Counted from the stretch's first letter, positions 987 to 58,887 are shown. The stretch is DNA of 64,000 nt from Pseudomonadota bacterium (GCA_021798115.1 JAJZYM010000002.1:166687-230686), one strand, 5' to 3'. Notes: generated by a model from the sequence alone, not told the origin. Numbers and translations are program-made.

Positions 987-3900
987 TCAATGGAGAACCA
1001 CACCCGACACGTGGGGAATCTGCAAATGATAATTCCGATACGGTTCGCGATGATAGCGAGGAATGGGATGTTCACGAAGCATGCGCAATGCGAGATGGAC
1101 GGCTTCGACAAGCTGGGGGTCGATTCCTTTGCGCACAAGCGCCGGATTGTTCCAGATTCTGACCGTGGGCGCAATACCATGATCCTCGACTGGGAAATGC
1201 CCGTTCAGACCCTCAATCGCTTCACGAGGCGCGGTGACACTCCCTCCATCCATGAGCGGCGGGTATCCCCAAATCCCAACCAGACCACCCCATGTTCTCG
1301 TGCCTACCAAGGGTCCGAGGTGTGCCATTTTGAAAAACCACGGCAGCGCATCGCCCCCGGAACCCGAGTAGCGGTTGATGATCATGACCTTGGGGCCCTG
1401 CATGACTTGCGATGGCTCGACGTACGTTCGCCCGTAGCGATTAACATGAAGAGCCATCGGCCTGCGTTGCAGATACTGAATGATGTAGTCGGCCAGATCG
1501 CCCCCCGTGTTGAAACGTTCGTCGATGATCACCCCTCGCTTGTTGATCTGCGAGAAAAAATATCGATTGAAGTAGCGTAGTCCCGCACTATAGGTGTTGG
1601 GAAGATATACGTAACCCAACTGTCCATGGCTCATGCGATTCACCACACGAATATTGTGGTCGACCCAAGCCGCAAGATTGAGTGGAGCTTCGTTGCTGAT
1701 CGTATGCACCACCAGATTGCGTGCTCCAGCTCCGTTGGCGTTTTTGGCAACCGTCAGGAGAACGTCTTTGTTGGCCAAGCCCTGAAACGCCGCGTATAGG
1801 CTTTTGCCTGCCCGAATTTGATGTCCGTTCACCGCGAGCACGTAATCGCCTCTGTGGATGTTCAAGCCGGGTTGGGCCAGCGGAGCGTAGAGAGACGGGT
1901 TCCACTCCCCTCCCCTCAAAATTCTGGCGATTTGATAACGTCCATGCTTGATTCGGTAACGGGCACCGAGAAGACCGACACCGACATGGAGTGTGTGCGG
2001 CTTCATCCCTCCACGAACAAACATATGCCCCACAGCGAGATAACTGAGCATTTCTCTGAAGAGAATGTTGAGCCCGTGGCGGCTCCCGACCCCAGGGAGA
2101 TAGCGTTCAAAGACCTTGGCGACGCGGTCGATGGGTGTGCCGTCGAAGATGGGGCTGTAAAAATATGTGTGCTCCATACGCCAAATGTCCTGATACATTT
2201 CTGACCAAGCCAATTGGGGCACCACGCGAACCATCATGCTCCCTGTGGGGATTGGACGCCGTGTGAATTTGCCGATTGTCGAGTCGACATACCATTTCTG
2301 ACCAACGGCGACGAGCATGCTCTTTCCGTCTCTCGCAGCATGGAAAACGCGCGCCTTCATGACCAGCACGGTCTCTTTGCGTTTGATCAGATTGTAACGA
2401 AGCACGGAAAACACAGCGGGACTGCTGAGCGGTGGGATCGGGGCTGCGCGTAGCAGGATCAGGCGGTTTCCCGGCAAGGGTTCCAGCCCAACATAATTAG
2501 CCGGTGGCACCGGCAGTGCAACCAGACGATCCCTTAAGTGGTCCAGATCGATCCGTGGTTCTACGATGTCTGAAAGTTTCTTTGTGCCACTTGCGTTTTT
2601 GTTTCCCAGCCCGGGAAATTGTACGCGTTCTGGTATGGGCGAAGGAGTTCTTTGACCCAGAGCCAGAGCATATACACTGCGGCGGATCCTGTGGTCGAGA
2701 CCGGTCATGTCCAGCGTGGTGGCGGAAAGACCCAGGTCAGTGCTTACGGTGAAATACAAATAACGCCCATGAGGCGAGAAAACAGGATCACGGCAATCGC
2801 TTGAGCCGTGTGTGACCATGTGGTTTGTGTGTCGCCTCACAGAATACAGGGCAATCGCATGGCGGAAGTTCGGCTCAAGCCTGGTGTAGACAATCCACCG
2901 GCCGTTTGGCGACCAACGAGCATCGAAATGCTGTGCGGTCGAATCGTAGATGTCTGTAGCAACAAGGCGTGGGTGCGGATGATGTTTCTTGAGATTGATC
3001 TCGTAGAGGTGCAAACGCACGTCGGCATACAGGAGTCGGTTCCCGACTGGCGACCAGCGGAGATGCCTGTAAAAATCGTATCGAGAACCAAGCGAGAAGA
3101 CCCGAACCGGACCAATACCGTCGGCCTTGCGTACATAGAGAGCGTAGGCGCCAGATTTATCTGAAAAATATGCGATTCTCGTTCCACGCGGTGACCAAGC
3201 CGGATCGCGTACCATCTCTCCCGCATCATGAGTCAGTGTCACCATCGCTTTGTGCTGGACGGACAGTTCGAGCAGTTTGCCGTAGGCCGTGAAGGCCACC
3301 CAATCTCCGCGTGGGTCGATGGCTGAATTCTGGAGATAAGGTTGCGCCTTGACAAAGCGTGAGCGGAGGTCGGGAATGTTGCCCTCAAGCCGGATGGGAA
3401 TTGCCCGCACACGCTGTGTGTGTAGATTGTAGAGTTCAATCCGGCCAAACCTGTCGAGGACAATGCCGCCGGGTCCGCTGGCTGCAGAAAGCATGTCGAA
3501 ATGATGACGCGAAGCCGGCAGTCTTTCCCGGAGATGATGAGTGCGTATATTGTAGGAGTAAAGGGTGAATTGGCCGGCTGCATTTGAAAGAAAAAAGATG
3601 TGGTTCCCTATCCAAAGGGGATCGCGGTCTTCGGCAGGCCCGTGGGGGATGCGTGCAAGAATGCGTGAAGTCCCAAGCTGTGCAATGCGAATCGTGGTCT
3701 TTTGGCCGCCTTCGTAATGCTGCCAGAAACGCTCCCACTGAAGTTCGGGGACGTACGCGATTTTGTGATCGTGAGGAGAGAACGATCCAACCTGGCCTGT
3801 GGGCAAAGGAAGCGGCTGCGCGAATCCGCCCCGCCGAGAAACCAGAAAGAGGCGAGGAATATAGTGTGGCCCGTAACGATCGGAACGAAACAAAACATCC

Positions 3901-4265
3901 CGACTGTTCGCTGTCCAACCTACAGCAATGTTGGGCGATGGGTAATAGGTCAACCGACGGACGTCTGCGCCATCGGCACGGGCGACGTAGACATCCGTGT
4001 TGCCCTGGTATGTTGCGGTAAAAGCAATGTACCGGCCGTTCGGCGAATAAAGTGGCCGTCTCAGGTTGCCGTGCCCCGTGATCAGTGGGTGAGCCACTCC
4101 GCCCTGCCGCGGAACGACCCAGATCAGTCCACCGTATGCAAAAGCGATACTCGTCGTAGAGAGCGTTGGGTCTAGGAACAACTTGGGCAGGGTTTTCCCG
4201 TACCCGACACTTAGGAAAATTGTAAGGACCACAGGCAAGAAGAGGCTTGGAGCGAGGCGTTTCAT
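987..4265 (-). CDS. Tricorn-type protease homolog (TolB-like beta-propellers, PDZ domain and C-terminal S41 peptidase), secreted.
   Basis: The ORF is 1116 aa. The likely start is the internal MKRLAPSLFLPVVLTIFLSVGYG signal peptide at 4265. It has repeated SPNGRYIAF / SPRGTRIAYFSD / SPNGRWIVY / SPHGRYLYF propeller motifs and a C-terminal S41-like region (GVIIDERFNTGGDLADY, NRYSGSGGDALPWFFK). Confidence 0.9.
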   Translation of the reverse strand: MKRLAPSLFLPVVLTIFLSVGYGKTLPKLFLDPTLSTTSIAFAYGGLIWVVPRQGGVAHPLITGHGNLRRPLYSPNGRYIAFTATYQGNTDVYVARADGADVRRLTYYPSPNIAVGWTANSRDVLFRSDRYGPHYIPRLFLVSRRGGFAQPLPLPTGQVGSFSPHDHKIAYVPELQWERFWQHYEGGQKTTIRIAQLGTSRILARIPHGPAEDRDPLWIGNHIFFLSNAAGQFTLYSYNIRTHHLRERLPASRHHFDMLSAASGPGGIVLDRFGRIELYNLHTQRVRAIPIRLEGNIPDLRSRFVKAQPYLQNSAIDPRGDWVAFTAYGKLLELSVQHKAMVTLTHDAGEMVRDPAWSPRGTRIAYFSDKSGAYALYVRKADGIGPVRVFSLGSRYDFYRHLRWSPVGNRLLYADVRLHLYEINLKKHHPHPRLVATDIYDSTAQHFDARWSPNGRWIVYTRLEPNFRHAIALYSVRRHTNHMVTHGSSDCRDPVFSPHGRYLYFTVSTDLGLSATTLDMTGLDHRIRRSVYALALGQRTPSPIPERVQFPGLGNKNASGTKKLSDIVEPRIDLDHLRDRLVALPVPPANYVGLEPLPGNRLILLRAAPIPPLSSPAVFSVLRYNLIKRKETVLVMKARVFHAARDGKSMLVAVGQKWYVDSTIGKFTRRPIPTGSMMVRVVPQLAWSEMYQDIWRMEHTYFYSPIFDGTPIDRVAKVFERYLPGVGSRHGLNILFREMLSYLAVGHMFVRGGMKPHTLHVGVGLLGARYRIKHGRYQIARILRGGEWNPSLYAPLAQPGLNIHRGDYVLAVNGHQIRAGKSLYAAFQGLANKDVLLTVAKNANGAGARNLVVHTISNEAPLNLAAWVDHNIRVVNRMSHGQLGYVYLPNTYSAGLRYFNRYFFSQINKRGVIIDERFNTGGDLADYIIQYLQRRPMALHVNRYGRTYVEPSQVMQGPKVMIINRYSGSGGDALPWFFKMAHLGPLVGTRTWGGLVGIWGYPPLMDGGSVTAPREAIEGLNGHFPVEDHGIAPTVRIWNNPALVRKGIDPQLVEAVHLALRMLREHPIPRYHREPYRNYHLQIPHVSGVVLH

Positions 4266-4374
4266 GGCCTTGGATTCTCCCGAGACAGTGAAGCTCAGAC
4301 CCATCCTACACGAAATATTTACCATCGGGTCAACCAAACCGGGTTGCGTGCGTTAGACTTCACGTGTTCTGCCC

Positions 4375-4992
4375 TTGATTTCTATAGAGGGTTTTCCCGT
4401 GCACGTGCGCCTTTATCTTCGCCCTCAACAATTTCTTGCCGCTCTCTCCGTGCTTGCGGCGATGGCAATCCCAGCGCACGCTTACATCATAAGGACGAAA
4501 ATTCTTCAACACACTCACTTCTCGAGCTACAAAGATTTTTATCTCATCGATCAAGGAGTTTCGCCTCGTCTTCTCAGACTGGTCGCCCATGACTACGAGA
4601 CCCTCTCATACAAGAGAGTTGCCGACCCTGACCAGGCCCAGTTTTTTCTCAGGGTCAGTGTTCGTCGAAAGATCATCAGGCTGCGCGTCCCCGTGCCGTA
4701 CCCCAGCTACGGGTATGGTTATGGTTACGGGCCCTTTTGGGGTCCGGGATGGGGACCGTTCCCGTTCTGTTGCGTCTATGGGCCCGCGTGGGGATGGGGC
4801 GTTTACGGCTATCCCGCTTACGGTCCAGCGTACCGATGGATCAGAAGAAGAGTGAGGGTCATCGAAATTACGGCCGTCAGCCGCCGTGACAATGTCCCGG
4901 TATGGAGAGGAACGGCCATCACGCGTATTCGCAGCCGAACCGCCCTGTGGGCCATCGTGTGGCATCTGGTGAACACCTTCCCGATCATTTGA
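4375..4992 (+). CDS. Secreted hypothetical protein, DUF4136-like, with a Gly/Tyr/Trp/Pro-rich insert.
   Basis: It has an N-terminal signal-like segment (LAALSVLAAMAIPAHA) and a low-complexity core (YPSYGYGYGYGPFWGPGWGPFPF...GWGVYGYPAYGPAY). The C-terminal VIEITAVSRRDNVPVWRGTA resembles the DUF4136 end motif. The start is uncertain; GTG at 4399 is possible. Confidence 0.55.
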   Translation: MISIEGFPVHVRLYLRPQQFLAALSVLAAMAIPAHAYIIRTKILQHTHFSSYKDFYLIDQGVSPRLLRLVAHDYETLSYKRVADPDQAQFFLRVSVRRKIIRLRVPVPYPSYGYGYGYGPFWGPGWGPFPFCCVYGPAWGWGVYGYPAYGPAYRWIRRRVRVIEITAVSRRDNVPVWRGTAITRIRSRTALWAIVWHLVNTFPII

Positions 4993-5108
4993 TCGGCTCT
5001 GTCGAATCGTCTTCAGCCGGAAGCCTCTATCTCTTACGCGTAGAGAGCGCATCACTCAACTCCGAGTAGCCTTATCATTTAGGGAATCGTCGCGTCTGGC
5101 TACCGCCT

Positions 5109-6005
5109 ATGAAAGACCGTTGTGCTCTCCGTTTCGCTGCCGCGACTGTGCTGCTGGTCCTTCTGGCATCTTGCAGTCGACCGCGATACACAGTTCCGCT
5201 GCACCTCGTGATGGGGATTGGCCCAAAAATCGTGAATGTGAGCACAGGAACACGCGGTCAGCTCCAAATGACGGTTATGGGTCGACTACCGCACTCACTG
5301 AATGTCGATGTTCTCAGCCGCGTCAGTCCGACAAAGCTCCTTGTCAGCACTTATCCTAAGCATGAAATCTTTCTTTTCGATACGACTGATCATCGTTTTC
5401 GACTTGTGCATCAAGGCTGGAACGCCGTCTATTTCCCAGCGCTCAAAGCCTTCGTATTCCTAAACAGCCCAAAGGGGGAATTCATGGCGCAAGAGCTCTG
5501 GATCGCCCCGCTTGCGCACCCCGATGCTGCCAAACGTTTGGACCGTGGGCCCTTTCCCATCCCTATGCCGGTTGTTCCGATCGCACCCAATGCTTTTGTC
5601 TACAGCAGCTGGCGGAAAACCGGCAAACAAAGACTGTGGCTCTACAACATGACTTTCGGAACATATATCCCACTGCACATCTCCGGTGTCTACCCTGAGC
5701 TTTGGCTTCCACACAGTCATCTTCTCCTTTGCGTAAACCTTGCCAAGCTCGACCGCCCCTACTCTTTTCGCTCTCTCAACGGCAAAATTGTCTCTCACCT
5801 CTCCCTGGGTAATTGGTACACTCCGGCGCTCGCCCTCCCCCATCGCCATATCGTCCTTGTCGGACGGCAGGGGGAGGCCATGTCGTCACCGTTTACCGGC
5901 GACACGCTGATGGCTTACGCTCTCAAGAGCAAACACTTGCGTGTTGTCCTTCAGCATACTTTCGTTGGACTTGGAACGATTGTGCAATCGGGAGGGAAGG
6001 GTTAA
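5109..6005 (+). CDS. Hypothetical lipoprotein.
   Basis: The N-terminus is MKDRCALRFAAATVLLVLLASCS, a lipobox (LLASC). I recognised no other family motif. Confidence 0.6.
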   Translation: MKDRCALRFAAATVLLVLLASCSRPRYTVPLHLVMGIGPKIVNVSTGTRGQLQMTVMGRLPHSLNVDVLSRVSPTKLLVSTYPKHEIFLFDTTDHRFRLVHQGWNAVYFPALKAFVFLNSPKGEFMAQELWIAPLAHPDAAKRLDRGPFPIPMPVVPIAPNAFVYSSWRKTGKQRLWLYNMTFGTYIPLHISGVYPELWLPHSHLLLCVNLAKLDRPYSFRSLNGKIVSHLSLGNWYTPALALPHRHIVLVGRQGEAMSSPFTGDTLMAYALKSKHLRVVLQHTFVGLGTIVQSGGKG

Positions 6006-6554
6006 TTGCAAAACATCATTTTCTACGCTCGTCGTTTAGGAGCGCTACTGTACGATGGTTTTCTTCTTGTGGCGTTCTGGCTGCTCGCCACGTTTTGCCT
6101 CGTTCTCGCTAAAGGGCACGGGCTCGTTGCGCCCGGAACCGGAACGGTCGCCAAAGCTCCGTACTGGCTTTTCCTGCTCGTTATCGCCTGGGCTTTTTTT
6201 TCTTGGTTCTGGTCTCACGGAGGCCAGACTCTCGGCATGAGGGCCTGGAAGCTTCAACTTCATCTTGCGGTGAGGCACGATGAAAACCGCGAAAAGCATC
6301 CCTCAAGCGTTAGCTGGGGTCGTGCAAGCCAACGTTTTGTGGTTACGCTTGCCGTATGGATCGTTGGAGCGGCGGTGGTCATCACTCCGGTATGGGACCT
6401 CACGACAAGCATACACTTGCCTTTTGCAACACGGGTCACAGCTCTACTCTTCACGTGGATAGCCGTCTCATTTTTGCTTTCCTTGGTACCGATCTGTCAT
6501 GGCAAGACACTTATTGATACTTTATCTGGCACAAGCATTGTTTCCGTTGCTTAA
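6006..6554 (+). CDS. RDD family membrane protein.
   Basis: RRLGALLYDGFLLVAFWLL ... GQTLGMRAWKLQL, with several TM segments. A TTG start lies directly after the upstream stop. Confidence 0.7.
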   Translation: MQNIIFYARRLGALLYDGFLLVAFWLLATFCLVLAKGHGLVAPGTGTVAKAPYWLFLLVIAWAFFSWFWSHGGQTLGMRAWKLQLHLAVRHDENREKHPSSVSWGRASQRFVVTLAVWIVGAAVVITPVWDLTTSIHLPFATRVTALLFTWIAVSFLLSLVPICHGKTLIDTLSGTSIVSVA

Positions 6555-6914
6555 CCGGTCGAGAGCCATTCCTTGAATCAAAGCAAGACTAACATCTTTC
6601 CATCCGAGCAGTGCCCCGCCGGCCACGCGCCAGAGCCGCACACGCAACGGGCAAGGCAACTTGCGCCAGCAGCCAACTGAGCTTCGTCGAGGATTGTGTT
6701 ACTCAGCGACGTGCCACGCCCGTGCCGCCGCATAGGTAAAGTGCTAGATAGTCCTCAAACGCACCAACCCTAACTCTTCGGGTCGTGATCACTCGTAAGC
6801 AAGTCTTCGAAACAATGTCGGCAAAGCAATCATGAAGCCAGTCTTGCTCTGCTGCAGCGGGATGTATGCGAAGACCTTTACTGCCCCGGTGTCAATACCT
6901 GGGTGTTAACGGGT

Positions 6915-7562
6915 TTATCGACTGCCCATCTTGAGGAGCATGTTGTATTGGTGCTGTATGGCGTTCAAGAGAGCAGGCACCGATCCATGATGCAGGAACG
7001 TCTGATATTCCGCCCGCCTGATCGCCATGTCGCTTACACCGTCAGCCACGATGTTCACAATCAACCAACGACTACCGCTGTGATGCAAAACATAATCAAA
7101 CTGGTGTTTGTGGCCGTGGCCGGGGGTAAAAAATGTTGTGTAGACGTAAGCGTTATTTCCCCTGACGAGACTACGATCGATCTTGATTTCCTGCCCACCG
7201 TACCCGTTGAAATTGTACGCATAGGTCGCCGCCACGAGGCGTGAAAAGAGATGCATGAAGCGGGTTTGTTGAGCGGGCGTGAAACTGTTCCAGTAGTGAC
7301 CAAGAACAAGCCGGGAGATGAACGGCAGCCCAAAGGAATTGTGTACGGCGCTTCTCATGATGGCGCAGCGTTTGAGCATCCCTGCGCTCTTCCCCGCTTT
7401 CATCGTGGCCAGGAGCGATTGATCAAAGCGGCTCACAACGCTAGCCGGTGTCTTATGGGGTCTGGACTCGACGTTGGCCCGGGAAATTTGAAAAAGAGGG
7501 ATGGCTAGGACAAGAAACAGAAATGTATTCAGGACATATTTGTGGTGGCCGGTTTTTGGCAT
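6915..7562 (-). CDS. hpnM: MlaC/Ttg2D-family periplasmic lipid-binding protein (HpnM-like).
   Basis: The core is LLATMKAG...FGLPFISRLVLGHYWNSFTPAQQTRFMHLFSRLVAATYAYNFNGY, typical of MlaC/toluene-tolerance family proteins. It has an N-terminal TM/signal segment and the likely start is MPKTGHHKYV at 7562. It is divergent from an HpnN-like RND gene. Confidence 0.7.
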   Translation of the reverse strand: MPKTGHHKYVLNTFLFLVLAIPLFQISRANVESRPHKTPASVVSRFDQSLLATMKAGKSAGMLKRCAIMRSAVHNSFGLPFISRLVLGHYWNSFTPAQQTRFMHLFSRLVAATYAYNFNGYGGQEIKIDRSLVRGNNAYVYTTFFTPGHGHKHQFDYVLHHSGSRWLIVNIVADGVSDMAIRRAEYQTFLHHGSVPALLNAIQHQYNMLLKMGSR

Positions 7563-7719
7563 GTTTACTCCACCTGCTGTAAAGGCAGGCTTGGCTATGT
7601 CTTTGGTGCGGTGGTCAGTCATTCGTGAGAGTGTGTCGTGATTGAATTATAGCTGAGCGACAGCTGAGTTGATACCAAGAATATGGGCTGCCTTCCGCAA
7701 CCGTTGGTGTAACAAATTG

Positions 7720-7731
7720 TTATAGCTATAA
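7720..7731. promoter_or_regulatory. Perfect 12-bp palindrome TTATAGCTATAA in the hpnM/hpnN-like divergent intergenic region; candidate operator.
   Basis: The sequence is self-complementary. The half-site TTATAGCT recurs at 7647-7654. A TATAAT hexamer lies at 7742-7747, upstream of the gene starting at 7877. Confidence 0.4.
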
Positions 7732-7876
7732 AACATTCGCTTATAATACTCAACGGGTCGCGGCTCAGACTGAAGTCACGGTTGGGGGGATGTACACAGA
7801 AGAATATCGCTCACCGTTACATCTGTGTTTATGTCTCACTCTTGCGGACACACACACCTTGGCCTGATGTGACGCA

Positions 7877-10555
7877 ATGAATACGCCGAACACACCAAAA
7901 GAATCTGGACGGTGGACTCGCCGAATGCTCGTGGGAACCGTCATGTTCTCACGGCGTCGCGCGGGCTGGGTGACAGCACTGGCAACGGTCCTGGCTCTCG
8001 CCGGTCTCGTTTTTATCATCTCGAGCTTCAAAATTGATACCAGTGTATCCCGTCTTCTCTTTCGAAAAGGCGATTTCACGCACGTCAATGAGGAGCTTGT
8101 CCATGATTTCCCCTCGCTCGGACGGCGGATCATCATCGAGGTAGACAGCGACGAAGCATCTACGACAGTGCGGGCGGTCCTTGACATTGTCCAGATCCTC
8201 AAACTCCATCCTCGTTCCTATCCGTTTGTTTACGCCCCGACTTCCGAGCCCCTATTCAGGGAAGATGGCCTTTTGTACCTTTCGACCTCTCGTCTTCGAC
8301 AGGTTTTGGCACGCCTCACGAAGGCCGAACCCCTTTTGGGGACGCTCCAGGATAGCCCTAACATACGCGGCTACGCGCAGCTTCTTGGGGAGATTCTCCG
8401 TAACCTCCGGAAACTTCCCGCCCCGGAAAGACGGATGGTTGCCTCCATCGTCGACAGAGCCACCTTCGCGATGAATCGGAAGGCACAGAACTCACCTGGC
8501 GCGAGGGTTCCCTTGGCGCTTGAGAACACACTCCTTGGATCCTCATCACGGCTTGCGCAGGCGCATACGAGAACCGGTATCGTCATCGTATCTCTCCCAC
8601 GCACCGACAGCACCAGCGCCCGCCTGCGTGAAGCTGTTTCTCGCCTGAAATCCCTTCTTCGCAGTGACGCCCAACTTTTGCACACACACGCGCACTGGGC
8701 GTATACGGGTTCCGTCATTCTCAGTCTTGACCAGCTACGGGCGGTGACAAGCGGTACGGATCTTGCAACGCTGCTTTCTTTAGCCTTAAGCATCGTGATC
8801 CTGATCGTGGGGTTGCGTAGCGCCAGGCTTCTCCTGCCGATTTTGATCTGTTTGCTGATCGGCTTGATCGTGACCGCAGCGTTTGCCCTCGCGGTTCTTG
8901 GCCCCCTTAACCTGATCACTGTAGCGTTTGGCGTACTCTTTATCGGACTAGGGGTCGACTTCAGTATCCAGTTCTGCATTCGTCTGCAGGAAGAACTATC
9001 CAAGCAAGCCAGCGCGGACATGGCGTTTAGCGCCACTGCTTACCGGATCGGCTTCGCGCTCTTTCTGGCCGCTCTCGCGGCCGCCAGCTGTTTCTATGCC
9101 GTGATCCCCTCCGGTTATAGCGGTATTCGCGATCTCGGCATCATTGCCGGCACCGGTGCACTCATTGCGCTTGTCTTGAACCTTACTCTACTGCCCGCCC
9201 TTCTGACACTGTTCCGTGCGGGTCGCATCACAATTGCTCGCCCCCCTGTTCCGTTCGCCAAACTACCCGTCAAAAAGCTTGCCCGTCCCGTTTTTCTGTT
9301 TTCGCTTGTCATGCTGGCCATCTCGGTTGTCGTCATCCCGCGGCTCGAGTTCGATTTTGACCTAGCTCATCTCGAAAATCACAACACTTCTGCCTACCGT
9401 GTTCTTCATCGACTGGAAAGCAAACTGTCTTTCTCTCCGTATACCCTCGAAGCAATAGCACCGAATCTGGCGCAGGCGAACCGTTGGGCAGCCACACTCG
9501 GTCATCTCACATCGGTGGGTCGTGTCCTGACGCTCAGCAGTTATATTCCTGGGCATCAGAAAACAAAGATGGCGATGATATCGAATGTCGCACTGCTTTA
9601 TCCACCACCGTTGACCTCAACGCCTCCAGCCTCCTTGGCTCGCGATCCGCAACGAGACTGCCACGTTTTGCGGAGCTTGGGCCGCGAGGCTCGGCAACAA
9701 AGTCGAACCGCGCCTGTCTCGATGCGGGGGGTACTCGTCCGCTTCGCGAACGCAACAAGCTCGTCTTTCGGAAGTCGCTGTGCTCTCCCGGCGCTGGAAT
9801 CCTTGGATCGGCGCGCGGTTCTACCGTTGCTCGAGCTGAGTCGTGAAGTGGCCAGGCTGCTTAATCCGGTGCCCGTCACAATCCGTTCGCTTCCGGCAAC
9901 GATCCGTGAGGATTATCTCGCCCCCAACGGGAAAGCTCGTGTCGAAATCTTTTCACGGCTCGATCTTCACAAATCTCGGAACCTTCAGAAGTTTGTCTCG
10001 CAAGTCACACGTCTCATCCCTGACGTCGGTGGTACCCCCGTCCTGTTTGTTCGTGGTGGCAAAATCGTGACAACGGCTTTTCGTGAGGCCAGCCTTCTGG
10101 CTTTTCTTTTCATCATCATAGTTGTCAGCATTGTTCTACGGAATCTTCGCGATCTTTCCCTCACCATTGTTCCACTTGCTCTCAGTGTCAGCTTGACGCT
10201 GACCACGCTGTCTCTTCTAGGGATACAGTTCAACATCGCCAACATCATCGTTATCCCACTTTCTATCGGGTTGAGCGTGGCTTTTGGCATCTACATGATT
10301 CTGCGTTGGAAGAACAATCACTACGACATTCGGCAGGTGTTGCGCTCCAGTGTGCCCGAAGGAATTCTTGTCAGCGGCATGACGACGCTCCTCGTGTTTG
10401 GAACGCTGGTTTTGACTCCGAGTCCCGGTCTTTTTAGCCTGGGCATCACGCTGGTGATTGCGCTCTTTTGGACCCTCGTCAGCAGTCTTGTCATCCTTCC
10501 GCCGATGCTTTATATGGTCGAAGCCTCGATCCATCATCGGGGGACACAAACATGA
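7877..10555 (+). CDS. hpnN: RND/MMPL-type transporter, HpnN-like (copy 1).
   Basis: The protein is 892 aa with two 6-TM bundles. It shares conserved blocks with the copy inside the hpn cluster: LNLITVAFGVLFIGLGVDFSIQF vs FNLISVAFSVLFVGLGVDFGVQY, and NIANIIVIPLSIGLSVAFGIYMILRWKN vs NLANIIVLPLLLGLSLAYGIYFILRWRD. Confidence 0.8.
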   Translation: MNTPNTPKESGRWTRRMLVGTVMFSRRRAGWVTALATVLALAGLVFIISSFKIDTSVSRLLFRKGDFTHVNEELVHDFPSLGRRIIIEVDSDEASTTVRAVLDIVQILKLHPRSYPFVYAPTSEPLFREDGLLYLSTSRLRQVLARLTKAEPLLGTLQDSPNIRGYAQLLGEILRNLRKLPAPERRMVASIVDRATFAMNRKAQNSPGARVPLALENTLLGSSSRLAQAHTRTGIVIVSLPRTDSTSARLREAVSRLKSLLRSDAQLLHTHAHWAYTGSVILSLDQLRAVTSGTDLATLLSLALSIVILIVGLRSARLLLPILICLLIGLIVTAAFALAVLGPLNLITVAFGVLFIGLGVDFSIQFCIRLQEELSKQASADMAFSATAYRIGFALFLAALAAASCFYAVIPSGYSGIRDLGIIAGTGALIALVLNLTLLPALLTLFRAGRITIARPPVPFAKLPVKKLARPVFLFSLVMLAISVVVIPRLEFDFDLAHLENHNTSAYRVLHRLESKLSFSPYTLEAIAPNLAQANRWAATLGHLTSVGRVLTLSSYIPGHQKTKMAMISNVALLYPPPLTSTPPASLARDPQRDCHVLRSLGREARQQSRTAPVSMRGVLVRFANATSSSFGSRCALPALESLDRRAVLPLLELSREVARLLNPVPVTIRSLPATIREDYLAPNGKARVEIFSRLDLHKSRNLQKFVSQVTRLIPDVGGTPVLFVRGGKIVTTAFREASLLAFLFIIIVVSIVLRNLRDLSLTIVPLALSVSLTLTTLSLLGIQFNIANIIVIPLSIGLSVAFGIYMILRWKNNHYDIRQVLRSSVPEGILVSGMTTLLVFGTLVLTPSPGLFSLGITLVIALFWTLVSSLVILPPMLYMVEASIHHRGTQT

Positions 10556-11628
10556 ACGGGGCGTCGCGCTCCCCAATAACGAGGAGCATCCGTTCACGCT
10601 TTGGCCTCTTGATTCAGATGCTGGGCGTGGCGGGGGGACTGGCACTCACGGGTTTTTTGATCACTCATGTCCATATCGTTGCGCTTGAGCATGCTCTCTC
10701 CGAGATTGGATACGGCATCGTTTTTCTTGTCTTGCTGCATCTCGTCTCGATCCTCTTGGACTCACAGGCTTGGTACATTGCACTTCGCAGGCTACGCGCA
10801 CGACTCGGACGAGATCTTGTGGCCGGTGCTGCGTGCCTGCGCAATGCGGTACAAACCCTCGTGCCGCTAGGAGCCAGCGGCTTTATCTCCGGCTATCGCA
10901 CGTTGCGCCACCATCAGGTCTCACCCCATACCGCCCTCTCGAGCCTCATTTTTGAAACCACGATCACGACAGCCGGGGAACTTTTCCTGTTGCTTGCATC
11001 GGCCGTGATGGTTTTCCGAGGTGCGTCTCCGACGGAACGCTCCACTTTCCTTAATTACGCCCCATTGGCCATGTTTCTTGCTGTGGTACTGGCCGTGGCA
11101 CTTGTCCTTCAGCTACGCGGCAAGGTCTTCGATACTCTTGGCCGCGGCCTGGAAAAATTGGGTCCGGGCACCCGCCGCTCGTCATGGAGTCGCTTCCCTC
11201 GGCGAGTCAAACATGGACTCTGGCGTCTTTACCGGTCACCGGCCGTGTGGGGTTGGGGCTTTCTTTGGCAGCTGGCCAGCCTCTTTGTCGGCGCTGGTGC
11301 TGTCTGGTTGGCTTTCTCCCTGATTCATGCACAGGTCCCGTTCATGGATGCGGTTTTCTTTCTGTGTCTTGCGCGGGCGTTACGCTCCTTTGGGTTTTTG
11401 ATCCCTTCGGCCTGGGGCCTTCAGGAAGGGCTCTTCATCCTGCTCGCACCTTTGGCGGCCGTTTCGCCCACTGCCGGTCTGACGGTGTCGCTCATCCTTC
11501 GCGTTCGTGACTTTTTCTTTGCTTTTGCGACCGTTGCGGTCGGACGCTTTGCTCGGCGTGGGCATTCCGAAAAAATCTCTCCCCCGCCGCTTCCGGAGGG
11601 CGTCCGGGGTTCCTTGGTGGACGAGTGA
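10552..11628 (+). CDS. hpnL: Flippase-like / UPF0104 (LPG-synthase TM domain) membrane protein, HpnL-like (copy 1).
   Basis: It is polytopic with an RSIRSRFGLLIQMLGVAGGLAL N-terminus. ATG at 10552 overlaps the upstream TGA (ATGA), which argues for this start over the longer 10468 ORF. Confidence 0.7.
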   Translation: MNGASRSPITRSIRSRFGLLIQMLGVAGGLALTGFLITHVHIVALEHALSEIGYGIVFLVLLHLVSILLDSQAWYIALRRLRARLGRDLVAGAACLRNAVQTLVPLGASGFISGYRTLRHHQVSPHTALSSLIFETTITTAGELFLLLASAVMVFRGASPTERSTFLNYAPLAMFLAVVLAVALVLQLRGKVFDTLGRGLEKLGPGTRRSSWSRFPRRVKHGLWRLYRSPAVWGWGFLWQLASLFVGAGAVWLAFSLIHAQVPFMDAVFFLCLARALRSFGFLIPSAWGLQEGLFILLAPLAAVSPTAGLTVSLILRVRDFFFAFATVAVGRFARRGHSEKISPPPLPEGVRGSLVDE

Positions 11629-11632
11629 TTTC

Positions 11633-12904
11633 ATGAGTGCGCGCTACGATCTCAGCTACCAGCTCCGCCTCCTCCGCGCGCGGGCGTTGCGCCGTTCCTT
11701 CCGTGTAACCACCCCGATTTTCGATACGCTACGGTCTTCGTTCTCGACTTCCGTCTATGACGCGGAAGCCATGATCCTCAAGGCCCAGAGCCAGACAGGT
11801 CTTCGAGATTTTTTTACCCCTCCCCCGAAAGAAGCTCTCTCCGCGCTCCTGTCCTCGATACGCGCAAACAACACTTTGAACGCTATCGGGCGGACGGCCC
11901 TGCGCGTGGATGTTCTGCGTCTTTTGTCCAACCACCTTCGTCTGGTCGAATTGTGCCGGCAAAACCCCAACCTTGCACGTCAACCGATTTTTTCACCCGT
12001 GTTCATCATGGGGTTGCCGCGAACTGCAAGCACCTTTCTTCACTCCATGTTGATCCTGGACACCCGGCACCGAGCGCCCACGATTGCGGAGGTAACTTAC
12101 CCCTACTTTGCGCTCGCCTCCCCTCCGGGTAGCAACTTACGCATGCGTCGAGCTCTTCATTGGCTGGACGTTCTTGAGCCCGACTTCCAAAACGCATATC
12201 CGTCACACCCCAAATCACCGCAGGAATGCTCCGAGATTCTCAGCAACACCATGGAAAGTTTGCGTTTCGACAGCACTTACGACGTGCCTGAGTATCTGAC
12301 GTGGATGGATCAGCGCACACACACCGGTGCCTACGAGTTTCATCGTCGCTTTCTTCAATCTCTCGACCACGTCTCATCCGGGGAGAAGCGTTGGGTCCTG
12401 AAATGCCCGGACCACGTGTTCTATTACCAGGATCTTCTCCGGGTTTATCCTGACGCGCGCATCATCGTGACCCACAGGGATCCCGGTCGAGTGCTTCCTT
12501 CTGTGGCATCGTTGACGATGATCCTCCAGGGCCTGTTCAGCGATCGTGTCGATCCCGCGCGTGTCGCTCAGCGGGTTTTGGACCGTTGGATCCTCGGGGC
12601 GCGGCGAGTGATCGAAATCGCCGATTCCGAGCACGCACGTTCACAGAGAGTCCTGCATGTGGTTTACGACGAGCTCGTCCGGTCTCCCCTTCCGATGCTC
12701 GAGAAGATTTACCGGTTCCTCGAAACACCGTTTCATGAAACGACAGCATCCAAGGTTCGTGAGCACCTTGATCGCTCCGAAGTCGGCAGCTATCGGGCCA
12801 ACCGCTACAGTGAGCAATTTCAGAAGCTCCTCCCCGCTGCGCTCGTGCGCGAGCACTTCCGTGATTACCTTGCCCGCTTTGATTTGCGGGAAAGAGAAAA
12901 ATAA
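11633..12904 (+). CDS. Sulfotransferase family protein (Sulfotransfer_3-like, PAPS-dependent).
   Basis: It has a 5'-PSB-like motif (FIMGLPRTASTFLHSML) and a 3'-PB-like motif (IIVTHRDPGRVLPSVASL). ATG at 11633 lies 4 nt after the hpnL-like stop. Confidence 0.8.
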   Translation: MSARYDLSYQLRLLRARALRRSFRVTTPIFDTLRSSFSTSVYDAEAMILKAQSQTGLRDFFTPPPKEALSALLSSIRANNTLNAIGRTALRVDVLRLLSNHLRLVELCRQNPNLARQPIFSPVFIMGLPRTASTFLHSMLILDTRHRAPTIAEVTYPYFALASPPGSNLRMRRALHWLDVLEPDFQNAYPSHPKSPQECSEILSNTMESLRFDSTYDVPEYLTWMDQRTHTGAYEFHRRFLQSLDHVSSGEKRWVLKCPDHVFYYQDLLRVYPDARIIVTHRDPGRVLPSVASLTMILQGLFSDRVDPARVAQRVLDRWILGARRVIEIADSEHARSQRVLHVVYDELVRSPLPMLEKIYRFLETPFHETTASKVREHLDRSEVGSYRANRYSEQFQKLLPAALVREHFRDYLARFDLREREK

Positions 12905-12940
12905 TGAGGGGTTAGGGGGCACGGGTTCCGCTCAACATAC

Positions 12941-13249
12941 TCACGGGCCGCGCAGTTTGATCCGACCCGTGAGCATCTCTACGTACATCCGCCAGTCGCT
13001 GACAAAGCTCCAGAAAGGCGCACCAAAGGTGGCCGGTCGATTGTGCTCGAACACGTAATGCCCGATCCAGGCACATCCATAACCCAGGACCGGCGCAAGA
13101 ACGAGGAGCCACATCGAGAAAAGAAGCGAGAGGGCGATGTCGATGAGCACGAGGCTCGAACCAACGACATGAAGAAGGCGGCATCCGTATGTTGAGTGCT
13201 GTTTTAGATAATAAGAATAAAACTCTGAATACGATGAAAATTCTTTCAT
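12941..13249 (-). CDS. DUF962 (Mpo1-like) membrane protein.
   Basis: MKEFSSYSEFYSYYLKQHSTYGCRLLHVVG...GYGCAWIGHYVFEHNRPATFGAPFWSFVSDWRMY matches the DUF962 pattern. Confidence 0.7.
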   Translation of the reverse strand: MKEFSSYSEFYSYYLKQHSTYGCRLLHVVGSSLVLIDIALSLLFSMWLLVLAPVLGYGCAWIGHYVFEHNRPATFGAPFWSFVSDWRMYVEMLTGRIKLRGP

Positions 13250-13744
13250 ACTCTGGCGCTCCAAAATCACTTCGTCTCAGAAGATTACCAGAACATGGCA
13301 ACAAGCCCCTGCCTTCGGGCATGCGGATAGCGTGCACAAGGCGCACGCCGATGCCTAAGCTGATGAATATTCGGGACTGCTATGGGCACGGCTGTCCGCT
13401 GGGTCTTGAGATTCCGATGGGCGGGCCGATGAACCCGCCCCTGAATCCGGCAAGCCAAGCTGCCGCGCAAGCGGCAGCGTAACGCGAACGGGAACTTCCC
13501 GGCTTGAGACGTGGGAAGGTTCTACGAAGGTTTCATACTTCAGCGAGCCGTTTGTTGGATAGGCCGCATAGACCACTGGATGGGCTCTGTTTGGTCATAA
13601 CCAGATATCCACCACGCGGGGCCTTCTTGCGCGGCCTACGTAGTCTCATTTTTTTCTTTTTTGGGTGAATTTAGGAGAAGCTCAGAAACCTTTGGTACTC
13701 ATTCGATCTTTGAGGAGGCCATGCGGGTTTAGCTCATCAGGTCC

Positions 13745-14150
13745 GGGATCTTCAGCACCCGCAAGTGTGTAAAAATCATGCCCCGCCTCGCGCAGACCCG
13801 GCACGGCTTCCGCGGCCAACTCGGCGCCGAGCGCGACAAACCAGGTAGTCCGCATCGAGGATCTCGCCGGATACCGCGACGCGGCGGGCTTCGGGATCGA
13901 TTTTCTCCACCTCGCCGAGGCGCACCTGGAGGCCCTTGCGCTGCAGCCGGGCGAGTGGCTGCTGGATGGATACGGCCTTGCGCAGCCCTACCATCAGCCA
14001 CGGCAGCGATGGCGCGTAGAGGTGCTCGCGTTTCCGATCGACGAGCACGACGCGATGGGTACATGGAAGGCGCCTGCGCAGCGCGCTGGCGGCGACGAGA
14101 CCACCCACGCCGTCGCCGAGGACGACGACTACTGTCTTGGCAGCATCCAT
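13745..14150 (-). pseudogene. N-terminal remnant of an FAD-dependent sulfide:quinone/flavocytochrome-c-type oxidoreductase. It is frameshifted near 13835-13842 and 3'-truncated near 13745.
   Basis: Frame 1 reads MDAAKTVVVVLGDGVGGLVAASAL...EILDADYLV and then becomes nonsense. A shift of one nt restores ALGAELAAEAVPGLREAGHDFYTLAGAE. After that, similarity to the family pattern ends and a stop follows at 13682. Roughly 150 of an expected ~400 aa remain. Confidence 0.6.
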
Positions 14151-14500
14151 CAGAACACCAGCGTCTTATCGGCCCACTGCGTCCACGCGACGAGCTGCTC
14201 CATCGTGCTACGCGGCGCGCCTTCGATCAGCTCCGTGGCGGCGATGCCGCGGGCGTCGATGCAAGTGCCACACACGCCGACTTCGCCGCCATGGCGGACG
14301 ATCATGCCCAGCATGTCGCCGATGTTGTAGTAGCCCGGCGCCACTTTCTGTCCAGCCTTGGCACAAGCCACCGCATCGCCGATCAGAAACAGCTTCACCT
14401 CCTCGCTGCCGGTCTTGAGCATCTGCCGGGCGAGTCGCAGAGCGTTGTAGCTGCGCTCGCTGCCGTAGGGAGCATCGTTGAGTACGAAGAGAGTTTTCAT
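14150..14500 (-). CDS. DsrE/DsrF/TusD-like sulfur-relay family protein.
   Basis: MKTLFVLNDAPYGSERSYNALRLA...LFLIGDAVACAK...VCGTCIDARG is typical of the DsrE fold. Its stop overlaps the start of the downstream pseudogene by 1 nt. Confidence 0.8.
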   Translation of the reverse strand: MKTLFVLNDAPYGSERSYNALRLARQMLKTGSEEVKLFLIGDAVACAKAGQKVAPGYYNIGDMLGMIVRHGGEVGVCGTCIDARGIAATELIEGAPRSTMEQLVAWTQWADKTLVF

Positions 14501-14583
14501 TGTGCCTCCACGGGGTTGGGACCCAGTGCATCCTATGCATTCTACGTGAACCCCTCCGACCCCTCACTGGGCGAATGTCTTGG

Positions 14584-14618
14584 TTGACAACGGGCTTTAA
14601 TCAGGACTAGAATAGTCC
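14584..14618 (+). promoter_or_regulatory. Candidate sigma70 promoter of the Rrf2-suf operon with an overlapping inverted repeat (putative Rrf2 operator).
   Basis: TTGACA lies at 14584-14589, followed by an 18-nt spacer and TAGAAT at 14608-14613. The inverted repeat GGACTA-gaa-TAGTCC (14604-14618) overlaps the -10 element, 22 nt upstream of the Rrf2 ATG. Confidence 0.5.
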
Positions 14619-14639
14619 AGTATTGAAGCGATCGCCCCT

Positions 14640-15227
14640 ATGCTCAGACTCCGACGGCTTACCGACTACGGCACCGTGATCCTCGCCCAGCTAGCGGCAA
14701 TGCGAGGGGGATGGATGACTGTCTCCTCGATTGCTCAGGCGACGAGGCTTCCGGAGGCTACGGTGGGCAAGCTTCTCAAGCAATTAACCCATCAAGGCCT
14801 TGTGGTTTCACAGCGTGGAACCCATGGTGGGTATCGGCTCTCACGCGATCCGACGGACATCTCGGCGCTCGAAATCCTGGAATCCCTTGAAGGCAGTGTG
14901 GCGGTCACGGAATGCAGCCTCGGGAACCTCGGCTGCAACCATGCCGGCTACTGCCGTGTCCGAACACCGTGGCAAACGATCAACGAGGCCATTCGACGCA
15001 CTCTCGTGGGCATCACACTCGCCGAACTCGCGGCCGCCTTGCCCATTCCCGCGCTTTACATGAGCCGCTCAGCTCCCCTCTCCAAGAATGCTCTCCCCGG
15101 TGTCGCTCAGGACGAATCGACGGCTCACGAACCCGAGCAATCTCGTTCCGCCACCGCCCCATCACGCCATCGCCCTGCCCTTCCGTCCGGAGCACAAGAC
15201 AGCAACCGTGAACACGTCCACCGATGA
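14640..15227 (+). CDS. Rrf2-family transcriptional regulator (SUF/IscR-type, Cys-ligated Fe-S sensor).
   Basis: It has an N-terminal wHTH ([18 protein letters not shown]...[21 protein letters not shown]...[11 protein letters not shown]) and three Cys ([15 protein letters not shown]). It sits directly upstream of sufB. Confidence 0.85.
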
Positions 15228-25466: not shown

Positions 25467-26564
25467 GTGTCCCCGCGCCTCATGTCCGGTTCCTCTGTCG
25501 TTTTCTCCGCCCCTGGTAAAGTGGTCCTCATCGGCGAATACGCTGTTCTGGAAAATGGAGCAGCCTACGTACGTGCGGTCGACGTGCGCGCACGCGTGCG
25601 TATCGATTCGCACGCCTCCAAACACCTTCTGGAAGCGCCGGACATCAACGTCGCGGAAATCGAGTTTGAGGCTACGGCAGGCCGCAAACCGATCTGGCGA
25701 CGCTCGGACGGCAATCTCCAAGCTCCGCGCGAACTTGACCTGGCGGGCACCGTTCTGGCTGACGTCCTCGCCAGGAGCACGCCGCCACCTTGCCGCATCC
25801 GTCTTGATACCTCGGCGTTTTTTGCCGAACTCGGCCGAGGAGGACGCACCAAGATCGGGCTCGGATCGAGCGCGGCGCTGACCGTCGCCCTCGATGCCGC
25901 CATCCACGTCTGGACGTGGGGGCCCGAACACGGCGGGAAGCATGAGGATCAGACCACGGTTCTGACCCGCCTTCAAGCACTCCACACGGGGCATCAGGGT
26001 GGCCGCGGAAGCGGTCTCGACATCGCGGCGAGCCTGTGTGGAGGGACCTTCGTCTATCGGCGGGGTGAATCTCACCCCAAAATCGCCCCTCTCCCGCTCC
26101 CGGACGGGCTTGAGTTTCTCTGCGTCTGGACCGGTCGTTCCTCCTCAACGGGCGGATTTCTCGAACGCCTGGCGGCCTGGCGTCGCCGCAACGAGCGCGC
26201 GTACGAACGCTTCATGAATGATCTTGCACATCTCTCGGATCAAGGAATCGACGCGGCATCCCGCGGCGACGCCGATCGGTTTTGCGCGACTGTCAGTGAC
26301 TACAGGCGACTCCTGGACGGGCTCGGATCGGCCGCGTCGCTTCCGATCGTCTCACCCGTTCACCGGCGCCTCGAACACCTTGCAACAAAAAACGGCGTGA
26401 CGTACAAACCGTCCGGCGCCGGCGGCGGGGACATCGGTATAGCGTTCGCAGCGGATCCCCGTGGGGCGCAGCGTTTCCGGGATGCGGCCAGCAACGAGGG
26501 GTTCCTCGTCCTCTCCTGCCCTGAGGCCCCCGCCGGTCTCCGGCGGGAGGCGGAGACGACTTAG
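25467..26564 (+). CDS. mvaK2: Phosphomevalonate kinase (GHMP kinase family).
   Basis: [58 protein letters not shown]. Mevalonate kinase is encoded separately in the fusion gene. Confidence 0.8.
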
Positions 26565-27703: not shown

Positions 27704-27723
27704 GATTGCGAACCTCGAGGCGG

Positions 27724-28356
27724 TCAGGTCACCGCGGGAGAAACGGGGGTGTGGGCCCGGAGGCCGGACGGGGGGAAACAAAGAAGATCCTGGACACGAT
27801 CGAAGTATTCGCCGCGAAGGGCCCACCATTCCATCAGAAACCAGGGCGTGAAGATTCCGGGCGTCTCCTCCACCGCCGTGTCGAGCTCGTCGGGAGCATA
27901 GTTACGGTACGCCGCAACCTCCTCGGGATGAACGACAGGAACGGTTGATGTCCGTCCCACGAAAACCCAGCACAGTTCGTGTTCCGAACCGGCGGCTCCA
28001 TACGAAGCCTGATAACGGAACTTGTAGACGTAATGGAGAGGGGTCTCGAGCCCGAGCTCTTGGCCCATGCGGCGGCGGGCGGCCTCCGCCGTCTCCTCCC
28101 CCAGACGCGGGTGGCTACAGCAAGCGTTCGACCAGTAAAGCGGCCACAGACGTTTGCCCGAGCTCCTCTGCTGGAGAAGCACCGAACCATCGTCTCGGAA
28201 AAGAAACACCGAAAAGGCACGGTGAAGAAGGCCCTCGCCGTCGTGGCAGAGTCGTTTGCTGGCGCTCCCGGTCGGCCGGTCATCCGCGTCGACCAGGATG
28301 AGAGGTTCCTCATCGTTCGAGACAGAAACGGATGCAGCGGGGCGATCAAGGAGCAC
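27724..28356 (-). CDS. idi: Isopentenyl-diphosphate delta-isomerase, type 1 (Nudix fold).
   Basis: [10 protein letters not shown]...[24 protein letters not shown]...[11 protein letters not shown]. The GTG start overlaps the upstream stop region by 11 nt. Confidence 0.9.
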
Positions 28357-35578: not shown

Positions 35579-35726
35579 GGATGAAAGTCGAGGCAACCGT
35601 CTTGGGGATCCCAGGCGGAGAAGTTTGACTAGAACCTTTGATTCTATCAGAGCAGCTTTGGGCGATCGGGTCAAAAGTGGTGACTTGCGTGTCTTGCCAT
35701 GCCAGGACGCGCTGTCGGTTGGAGTT

Positions 35727-58847: not shown

Positions 58848-58887
58848 CCGGCCTCTTGCGGGCCACCGCCGTGCGGCGCTTCCCCTC

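Follow-up and report, generated by a model that had tools for sequence, protein, structure and literature searches.

A sulfotransferase gene adjoining hpnN- and hpnL-like genes: a candidate sulfated-hopanoid module in a Pseudomonadota bacterium

In a 64,000-nucleotide stretch from an uncultured acid-mine bacterium of the Pseudomonadota (GCA_021798115.1, JAJZYM010000002.1:166687-230686; hereafter the window), positions 6915-12904 hold genes for an HpnM-like periplasmic carrier, an HpnN-like RND transporter (N2), an HpnL-like membrane protein (L2) and a sulfotransferase (ST). We propose that the ST locus adds to the hopanoid pathway a branch for tailoring and export, giving rise to a sulfated hopanoid, and put the probability of this reading at about one half. 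Such a branch, predicted from gene content and neighbourhood, would employ an enzyme class not previously linked to hopanoids, acting on a presumed hopanoid substrate. A sulfated hopanoid had been guessed at in an earlier reading of the sequence (the original prediction); the guess gains support from ST homologues that lie beside hpnM, hpnN, hpnL, hpnI, hpnJ or hpnK genes in other genomes, although this link is not exclusive.

Results

Organisation of the module

The module and the gene downstream of it are laid out as follows.

6915-7622, minus strand: HpnM/MlaC-like protein, 235 aa (open reading frame (ORF) map and PF05494)
7623-7876: divergent intergenic spacer of 254 bp, presumed shared promoter/regulatory region
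7877-10555, plus strand: HpnN-like RND (HAE3/MMPL) transporter, N2, 892 aa
10552-11628, plus strand: HpnL-like/LPG_synthase_TM protein, L2, 358 aa; ATG at 10552, TGA at 11626-11628
11633-12904, plus strand: sulfotransferase (Sulfotransfer_3), ST, 423 aa; last gene of the putative operon
12941-13270, minus strand: DUF962/Mpo1-like protein, 109 aa

The ORF map places every gene where the original prediction had it, including the divergently transcribed MlaC/HpnM-like carrier, and the junctions read as claimed: the L2 ATG at 10552 overlaps the N2 stop codon as ATGA, and the ST start codon lies 4 nt past the L2 stop codon. Because of the overlap, the 4-nt gap and a co-directional order that is conserved in relatives, N2, L2 and ST look like one operon, as originally suggested. 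From these same features we infer co-transcription of the three genes, and L2 may be translationally coupled to N2 through the ATGA overlap. The DUF962 gene is indeed present downstream (PF06127, 119.2 bits), whereas its membership of the system did not stand. It lies on the minus strand, convergent with ST and with 36 bp between it and the ST stop codon, and therefore cannot be in the operon. Among relatives it is kept in L002, L011, L095 and L096 and absent from L001, whose ST is ~70% identical; among the 80 genome loci surveyed below it accompanies ST in L011 only, being absent at all distant ST loci. The convergent strand and its retention in close relatives only led us to reject it as a pathway member, and it is probably a lineage-specific neighbour.

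The sulfotransferase

ST matches PF13469 with 125.7 bits, against a gathering score of 27, over residues 122-369, and an NCBIfam scan of the protein gave no model match. The two peptides quoted in the original prediction, GLPRTASTFLHSML and THRDPGRVLPSVASL, are both present in the 423-aa ORF. A family profile of 24 homologues matches, over nearly the whole length, the PDB entries 2zq5 (E 2.9e-70) and 2z6v (E 7.9e-61), which Foldseek names as STF1 of Mycobacterium tuberculosis and STF9 of M. avium. These two structures were also the top Foldseek matches of the AlphaFold2 model of ST (pLDDT 90.1, pTM 0.90), each with a probability of 1.00 and a target-normalised TM-score of 0.80, at 21-26% identity in the structural alignment. 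All other significant Foldseek matches were likewise sulfotransferases or enzymes of that fold, namely tyrosylprotein sulfotransferases, the sulfotransferase domains of CurM/OLS, retinol dehydratase and cytosolic SULTs.

The cofactor motifs are intact. The loop that binds the 5'-phosphosulfate, G127-L-P-R130-T-A-S-T, and the motif for the 3'-phosphate, H281-R282-D-P...S290, show no more than conservative substitutions among the 24 homologues, and they align with GLVRTGTT and THR...S in 2zq5 and with GMPRTGTT and HRDP...S in 2z6v. The candidate catalytic residues E198 and E201 (PQECSE) and K257 and H261 (KCPDH) are invariant in the same set. Family score, fold match and motifs together uphold the assignment to the sulfotransferases that use 3'-phosphoadenosine-5'-phosphosulfate (PAPS), and the PAPS-binding residues, whose loss would have counted against it, are retained on proper alignment. 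Sequence and structure model thus identify ST as a soluble, PAPS-type enzyme of the mycobacterial Stf1/Stf9 type, with predicted sulfotransferase activity. It shares with Stf1 and Stf9 the fold, near full-length homology and the motifs GxxR(T/S)(G/A)(T/S)T and HRDP...S, and differs in being proteobacterial where the Stf enzymes are actinobacterial. To our knowledge, the substrates of Stf1 and Stf9 have not been established. Membrane-segment prediction found no such segment in ST. Since PAPS is cytoplasmic, sulfation would be expected on the inner side of the cytoplasmic membrane.

The transport proteins and the canonical hopanoid cluster

For the other module proteins, families were called with Pfam gathering scores and NCBIfam curated cut-offs. 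The Hpn families assigned to them by the original prediction are their best matches, but each protein falls below the curated cut-off of its TIGR model. The HpnM-like protein matches MlaC (PF05494) with 114.5 bits and misses the HpnM model TIGR03481 by 2 bits (157.9 against 160.1). It shows a hydrophobic signal-like segment after an internal Met21 on reading of the sequence, and its gene is the sole MlaC-type gene of the window by tblastn. L2 matches PF03706 (LPG_synthase_TM) with 80.5 bits against a gathering score of 33.4, and the HpnL model TIGR03476 with 143.9, below the cut-off of 195.65. By sequence, L2 is homologous to the transmembrane (flippase) region of MprF. The HpnL profile gave no match among PDB sequences.

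N2 scores 47.4 bits against Pfam MMPL, 653.6 against the HpnN model TIGR03480 (cut-off 751.85) and 501.3 against the HpnN equivalog NF052374 (cut-off 1100), and matches the BstA RND model weakly (136 bits; cut-off 1400). Its nearest PDB protein is the solved HpnN of Burkholderia multivorans (5khn), with which it aligns end to end (residues 17-878, E 2.3e-101). N2 keeps the Asp of GVDFS in transmembrane segment 4 and the Thr of transmembrane segment 10, which align with D344 and T818 of 5khn; these we take to be the proton-relay residues of HpnN. The N2 gene is flanked by the HpnM-like and HpnL-like genes and lies 16 kb from HpnH, the closest gene of hopanoid biosynthesis, and 26 kb from shc, the squalene-hopene cyclase gene.

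Farther along the window, at ~26.5-44.4 kb and 14-31 kb downstream of the ST module, lies a canonical hopanoid cluster, with mevalonate genes interleaved with hpnH, hpnL and hpnN between 25467 and 35674.

25467-26564: phosphomevalonate-kinase-like protein
26561-27829, minus strand: HpnH, adenosylhopane synthase, first step to extended C35 hopanoids (TIGR03470, 542.1 against 225)
28346-30634: HMG-CoA reductase fused to a GHMP (mevalonate) kinase, 762 aa
30757-31842, minus strand: canonical HpnL, L1 (TIGR03476, 255.9 against 195.65), directly downstream of N1
31845-34772, minus strand: canonical HpnN, N1 (TIGR03480, 797.4 against 751.85; PF03176)
34508-35674: diphosphomevalonate decarboxylase
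36452-38710, minus strand: squalene-hopene cyclase (PF13243, 434 bits; PF13249, 416 bits)
40853-44398, plus strand: hpnI-hpnJ-hpnK (HpnI 304.6 against 310, HpnJ 811.8 against 577.6, HpnK 323.8 against 232.6)

An HpnG-like gene, a squalene-synthase-like gene and HpnA complete the cluster. The mevalonate pathway, the squalene-hopene cyclase, HpnH and HpnI/J/K are thus encoded in one window, and, since the cyclase is present, the organism can make the backbone of the presumed substrate. The hpnI-hpnJ-hpnK genes are side-chain genes for bacteriohopanetetrol (BHT)-glucosamine and BHT cyclitol ether, products which are candidate acceptors for sulfation.

As the cluster has an HpnN and an HpnL of its own, both above cut-off, the N-L genes of the module are a second, divergent pair. 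N2 is 36% identical to N1 and L2 27% identical to L1, and the gene order is alike, with hpnL directly downstream of hpnN in both. The module is therefore a second, anciently diverged N-L pair with ST appended; the original description of its transporters as hpnN-like and hpnL-like is right as to family, whereas the canonical pair of the organism is the one at 30.8-34.8 kb.

Conservation of the module in relatives

The species of the window is close to the metagenome-assembled genome (MAG) 'Proteobacteria bacterium YF3.bin4' (L011), in which ST is 96% identical, and sequence of the window's species turns up again in metagenomes from acid mine drainage (AMD), tailings and sediment. In L001, L002, L095, L096 and L097, ST is 68-71% and L2 54-55% identical. 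The loci L001 and L095-L097 keep the whole series of genes for a Tricorn-like protease, a DUF4136 protein, a protein without assignment, an RDD protein, MlaC (minus strand), MMPL, LPG_synthase_TM and ST; the L002 sequence ends upstream of L2, so that the upstream block is not covered there. The downstream Mpo1-like, Rrf2 and Suf genes are kept too in L002, L095 and L096. The divergent position of the HpnM-like gene is conserved in L001, L011 and L095-L097, and the co-directional order N-L-ST in these as well as in the farther relatives L010 (ST 45% identical) and L093 (RND 39% identical). More widely, a gene of the L2 clade is followed by ST in L001, L002, L004, L006, L010, L011, L012, L091 and L095-L097; in L004, L006, L012 and L091 the L-ST pair has no RND gene nearby, and L008 has an N-ST pair. 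A word-indexed protein search with L2 gave 7 matches, and a reciprocal metagenome scan with L2 peptide patterns returned one locus, L091, again showing L2 followed by ST. Since relatives with protein identities of 54-96% show the arrangement again, the genes have not come to lie together by chance.

The block upstream of the module, at 987-6554, encodes the Tricorn-like S41 protease (1116 aa), the DUF4136 lipoprotein-like protein, a 298-aa protein for which no family match was found and the RDD-family membrane protein, and it stands in strict synteny with the HpnM/N/L/ST module in each relative whose flank is long enough (L001, L095-L097). Pfam and NCBIfam searches of the conserved block 987-13270 found no polyketide synthase (PKS) or acyltransferase gene, and family scans found no MlaA-type gene near the module.

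The wider family of ST homologues

We surveyed one genome per species and obtained 80 loci with an ST homologue, mostly 36-43% identical to the query, in which hpn neighbours were called by tblastn with the proteins of the window. Most of the loci belong to Acetobacteraceae and other alphaproteobacterial MAGs; Rhodopila globiformis DSM 161 and Acidocella aquatica are also represented, as are MAGs of Chromatiaceae, Stellaceae, Rhizomicrobium, Phenylobacterium and 'Candidatus Binataceae'. Many ST carriers are named for acid habitats. At 53 of the 80 loci, an HpnM/N/L-like gene (rarely HpnH, J, K or A) lies within 8 kb of ST, and at 51 such a gene (rarely HpnH or HpnK) lies within 1 kb; with three such genes in a genome of ~4000, one would by a rough estimate meet one as immediate neighbour by chance in ~0.15% of cases.

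The partner and its orientation differ between the clades of a neighbour-joining tree of ST, with at least four arrangements: N-L-ST or L-ST, co-directional; ST followed by L, co-directional (L034, L064, L065, L069, L081, L082); ST convergent with HpnN (12 loci); and HpnM divergent from ST (27 loci). Therefore, the link between ST and hpn genes has survived rearrangements. HpnL is the commonest co-directional immediate partner of ST across deep clades. In the alphaproteobacterial MAG L071, ST, HpnI, HpnJ and HpnN follow one another co-directionally with gaps of at most 35 bp, and HpnM and HpnL follow on the opposite strand; the hpnI, hpnJ and hpnN products score above their cut-offs (HpnN equivalog 1100.5 against 1100). 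The gammaproteobacterial MAG L093 has MMPL-LPG_synthase_TM-ST followed by MlaA, MlaC, a radical-SAM gene and a GT21 gene. In the cultured R. globiformis DSM 161 (L025), HpnM scores 180.2, above cut-off, and its gene is divergent from ST. Converted from L025 to NZ_NHRY01000260.1, ST occupies ~134659-135789 and HpnM ~136078-136707. The RND and HpnL neighbours at alphaproteobacterial loci score slightly better against the canonical copies of the window than against N2 and L2. By these comparisons, the alphaproteobacterial ST accompanies ordinary hpn genes, and that of the window's lineage a duplicated pair.

Several other genes were observed around ST homologues. In the Acetobacteraceae/Rhodopila clade, a cytochrome P450 gene accompanies the HpnM-ST pair at 21 loci, usually convergent with ST and at several loci within ~100 bp of its end. 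Mycobacteria have a cyp128-stf3 pair, in which hydroxylation is followed by sulfation, and by analogy the P450 gene beside HpnM-ST recalls this pair. Tandem TauD/AtsK-family dioxygenase genes lie near HpnM-ST at 16 loci, sometimes with a luciferase-like monooxygenase gene, which hints at sulfate-ester turnover. In L025, these accompanying genes lie at 4826-6634 and 10669-13320. A GT1 gene directly follows ST in the unrelated loci L010 (11703-13082, after N-L-ST) and L085 (9100-10188, without hpn genes), a hint that the acceptor may be glycosylated. In L071, a CysZ-like 'sulfate transporter family protein' is encoded at 3415-4116, 4 kb upstream of ST-hpnI-hpnJ-hpnN (PRK12768, 132 bits, below the cut-off of 191).

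Transcription, regulatory signals and composition

Three AMD metatranscriptomes contain contigs of 180-240 nt over parts of the HpnM-like gene, N2 (three pieces), L2 and ST. The divergent spacer 7623-7876, the presumed promoter region, showed no match to a consensus sigma-70 promoter, and terminator-like consensus matches lie inside genes. There was no Rfam match, and a search for repeats or mobile-element ends found no meaningful ones.

The module has a GC content of 0.52-0.59, against 0.60-0.66 for the hpn cluster, and a step near 14 kb separates ~0.55 (1-14 kb) from 0.61-0.69 in the rest of the window. Despite this step, we rejected recent horizontal transfer and chimeric assembly, because relatives at 55-71% identity share both the junction ST-Mpo1-Rrf2-Suf and the entire block upstream in syntenic order. 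The window has ~1.3 kb (~13300-14640), situated between the Mpo1-like gene and Rrf2, that L002, L095 and L096 lack; this stretch holds a DsrE-like ORF (14150-14500, minus strand) and a truncated Pyr_redox_2 fragment (13776-14150, minus strand) that looks like a gene remnant. At 55798-59186, the window encodes LolA (the outer-membrane lipoprotein carrier) beside FtsK, then an MgsA-type AAA+ ATPase and seryl-tRNA synthetase; these are ordinary housekeeping genes and the window is therefore chromosomal.

Discussion

A model for sulfation and export

We propose the following series of steps. On the cytoplasmic side of the inner membrane, ST would add sulfate to a hydroxyl or amine in the polar head group of an extended hopanoid. 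BHT, BHT-glucosamine or BHT cyclitol ether, all products of the canonical hpn cluster, would serve as acceptor. The HpnL-like protein, which resembles the flippase region of MprF but stands alone, would translocate the anionic lipid to the periplasmic leaflet, or present it, and the HpnN-like RND pump, driven by the proton gradient, would extract it. The HpnM-like protein of the MlaC family would then ferry the sulfated lipid through the periplasm as far as the outer membrane. In this scheme, the substrate, the flippase role of HpnL and the order and direction of transport are putative. It may be speculated that a sulfate ester, being permanently charged, would suit the habitat by keeping the surface charge negative even when the pH is very low.

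Extended to the family, the proposal would be that ST homologues are hopanoid-associated, that sulfated bacteriohopanepolyols are widespread and overlooked in Alpha- and Gammaproteobacteria, that HpnL is their translocase or partner, and that the duplicated hpnN-hpnL-hpnM route of the acid-mine lineage is dedicated to them. We offer this wider version tentatively, as somewhat less probable than the proposal for the locus itself.

Comparison with known systems

With the HpnN/HpnM/HpnL system, known structurally from B. multivorans (5khn/5khs), the module shares the same three families and the same N-then-L order, and differs from it by its sub-cut-off scores, its location outside the hpn cluster and the attached ST. 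HpnM has been proposed to be an MlaC-like periplasmic hopanoid shuttle (PMC12324291), and the resemblance to the Mla system (MlaC/MlaA) and to the proposed HpnM/HpnS shuttle extends from the MlaC-family carrier of the window to L093, where N-L-ST adjoins genes for MlaA (HpnS) and MlaC (HpnM). In contrast to Mla, the inner-membrane partner in the window is an RND pump and not an MlaFEDB ABC transporter, and an MlaA-type gene is missing nearby. The BstABC sterol transporters of Methylococcus offer another parallel, in that BstA and, by prediction, N2 are RND exporters of polycyclic triterpenoids; however, N2 lies far below the BstA cut-off, and no BstB- or BstC-type genes were seen.

The transmembrane region of MprF carries flippase activity, not synthase activity. 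L2 shares this PF03706 region, and the idea of moving a charge-modified lipid is the same, but L2 is without the C-terminal synthase domain, and its lipid would bear a negative charge from sulfate where that of MprF bears a positive one from lysine.

The analogy with mycobacterial MmpL transporters and their sulfotransferases, on which the original prediction had drawn, is strengthened by the homology of ST to the Stf enzymes. In the Stf0-MmpL8 sulfolipid-1 system of M. tuberculosis, cytoplasmic PAPS-dependent sulfation is likewise combined with an MMPL/RND lipid exporter (PMC3141025, PMC3318749). The module differs in lacking acylation genes of the Pks2/PapA/Chp1 type, so that the likeness lies in the adjacency of sulfotransferase and MMPL genes; moreover, the presumed lipid core is a triterpenoid instead of trehalose, and the cell is a diderm with a periplasmic MlaC-type carrier. 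Stf0-3 have been described in mycobacteria, where formation of the sulfated menaquinone S881 depends on stf3 (PMC3141025). Such an enzyme can thus sulfate an isoprenoid membrane lipid (PMC3141025), and the likeness of ST to Stf3 is drawn here by description.

Weighing the alternatives

A number of observations weigh against a sulfated hopanoid. The HpnM-, HpnN- and HpnL-like proteins all fall below the NCBIfam cut-offs, and these paralogues may therefore have changed substrate. HpnL is not known to act as a flippase (PMC12324291, PMC12583986). The literature searched contains no report of a sulfated hopanoid, although an overlooked lipid would leave the same picture, and no RNA contig spans a gene junction in the three AMD metatranscriptomes, which yielded low-coverage fragments and speak neither for nor against co-transcription. 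The survey is dominated by related Acetobacteraceae MAGs, so that the 51 of 80 loci are not independent events, and 27 of the 80 are without an hpn neighbour. Among the latter, ST lies beside LpxI and GT1 in A. aquatica (L085) and beside an OmpA-like protein, DUF2092, a methyltransferase and GT2 in L024; judging by these two hpn-free loci, the ST family is envelope-linked but not exclusively hopanoid-linked. Conversely, an RND protein 43% identical to N2 (L092) belongs to a complete hpn locus with transport and side-chain genes but no ST, and Nitrococcus mobilis has a close RND relative likewise without ST. These two cases led us to reject a strictly ST-bound RND clade, and ST is therefore an accessory, not an obligatory, component of hopanoid loci.

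The envelope genes at hpn-free loci (LpxI, GT1, GT2, OmpA-like and DUF2092) are what one would expect if ST modified a non-hopanoid envelope lipid, such as lipid A or the lipopolysaccharide core, a glycolipid, a polyprenyl lipid or a quinone, with N2 and L2 re-purposed for its export and the hpnM/N/L link elsewhere reflecting shared trafficking of outer-membrane lipids. The sub-cut-off scores of N2, L2 and the HpnM-like protein, in a window that has a canonical HpnN and HpnL, point the same way, as does the GT1 that follows ST in L010. The nearest characterised relatives also act on other lipids, Stf3 giving a sulfated menaquinone and Stf0 sulfolipid-1 (PMC3141025). Nevertheless, the neighbours of ST in Alphaproteobacteria and L093 are canonical hpn genes that score above cut-off, the side-chain genes hpnI/J/K among them, no acyltransferase, PKS or other lipid-synthesis gene accompanies the module of the window, and N2 remains closest to the solved HpnN among PDB proteins. 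We consider a non-hopanoid lipid unlikely, though it is the strongest of the rivals. A looser association, in which N2, L2 and the HpnM-like protein form a second, condition-specific set for hopanoid export and ST is an unrelated passenger acting on a soluble metabolite, a peptide or a polysaccharide, would suit the great diversity of Sulfotransfer_3 acceptors (the Foldseek matches include tyrosylprotein sulfotransferases and PKS-associated sulfotransferase domains) and the existence of close RND relatives without ST; the evidence that ties ST to a lipid is, moreover, indirect. It accords poorly with the re-association of ST with different hpn partners and orientations across deep branches of its own tree, and with the tight coupling over a 4-nt gap, conserved to ~39-45% identity, and we regard it as improbable.

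Since HpnL is the most persistent co-directional partner of ST in deep branches, a direct partnership of the two proteins is a serious variant of the sulfated-hopanoid reading. HpnL and ST would then constitute a two-part enzyme, with HpnL as the scaffold or acceptor-presenting subunit and export left to N2 and HpnM only. The changing position of HpnL, which precedes ST in the clade of the window and follows it in the loci with the second arrangement, and the L-ST pairs with no RND gene nearby are consistent with this. On the other side, PF03706 models the MprF transmembrane region, the part with flippase and not synthase activity, and the HpnL profile found no PDB sequence match. We give this variant the least weight, marginally below that of the passenger. 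The sulfated hopanoid, exported by the duplicated route, thus remains the reading that we favour.

Relation to previous work and significance

Neither 'sulfated hopanoid' nor related phrases were found in the literature searched, and papers there that combine hopanoids (or squalene-hopene cyclase) with a sulfotransferase do so in unrelated contexts only. The statement of the original prediction that an hpn-associated sulfotransferase had not been described agrees with this, none being found in the hopanoid literature searched. Lawrence et al. (2025) analysed microsynteny around shc and hpnN and named hpnL, hpnM, hpnS (MlaA) and hpnT (DUF2147); they called the function of HpnL unclear and mentioned no sulfotransferase (PMC12324291). 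Sinninghe Damsté and colleagues (2025) covered 54 Alphaproteobacteria, including R. globiformis DSM 161, with an intact-lipid method that follows Hopmans et al. (2021), and saw no obvious further candidate genes near the hpn cluster (PMC12583986); sulfate or sulfotransferase is mentioned neither in the text nor in eight supplementary files of that paper. HpnL and HpnM are stated in both studies to have no known function (PMC12324291, PMC12583986). For HpnL, the linkage to ST suggests a definite role that is open to experiment.

Hopanoids rank among the chief membrane lipids of bacteria and give rise to the most abundant molecular fossils, and the inventory of their polar derivatives underpins the interpretation of these biomarkers. 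Analyses of bacteriohopanepolyols (BHPs) generally use positive-ion liquid chromatography-mass spectrometry, and the Hopmans et al. method reportedly relies on positive-ion detection. A sulfotransferase family recurrently tied to hpnL/M/N and hpnI/J/K predicts a new, permanently anionic class of hopanoids, and the prediction can be tested in the cultured type strain R. globiformis DSM 161. If it is true, current BHP analyses would have missed part of the pool.

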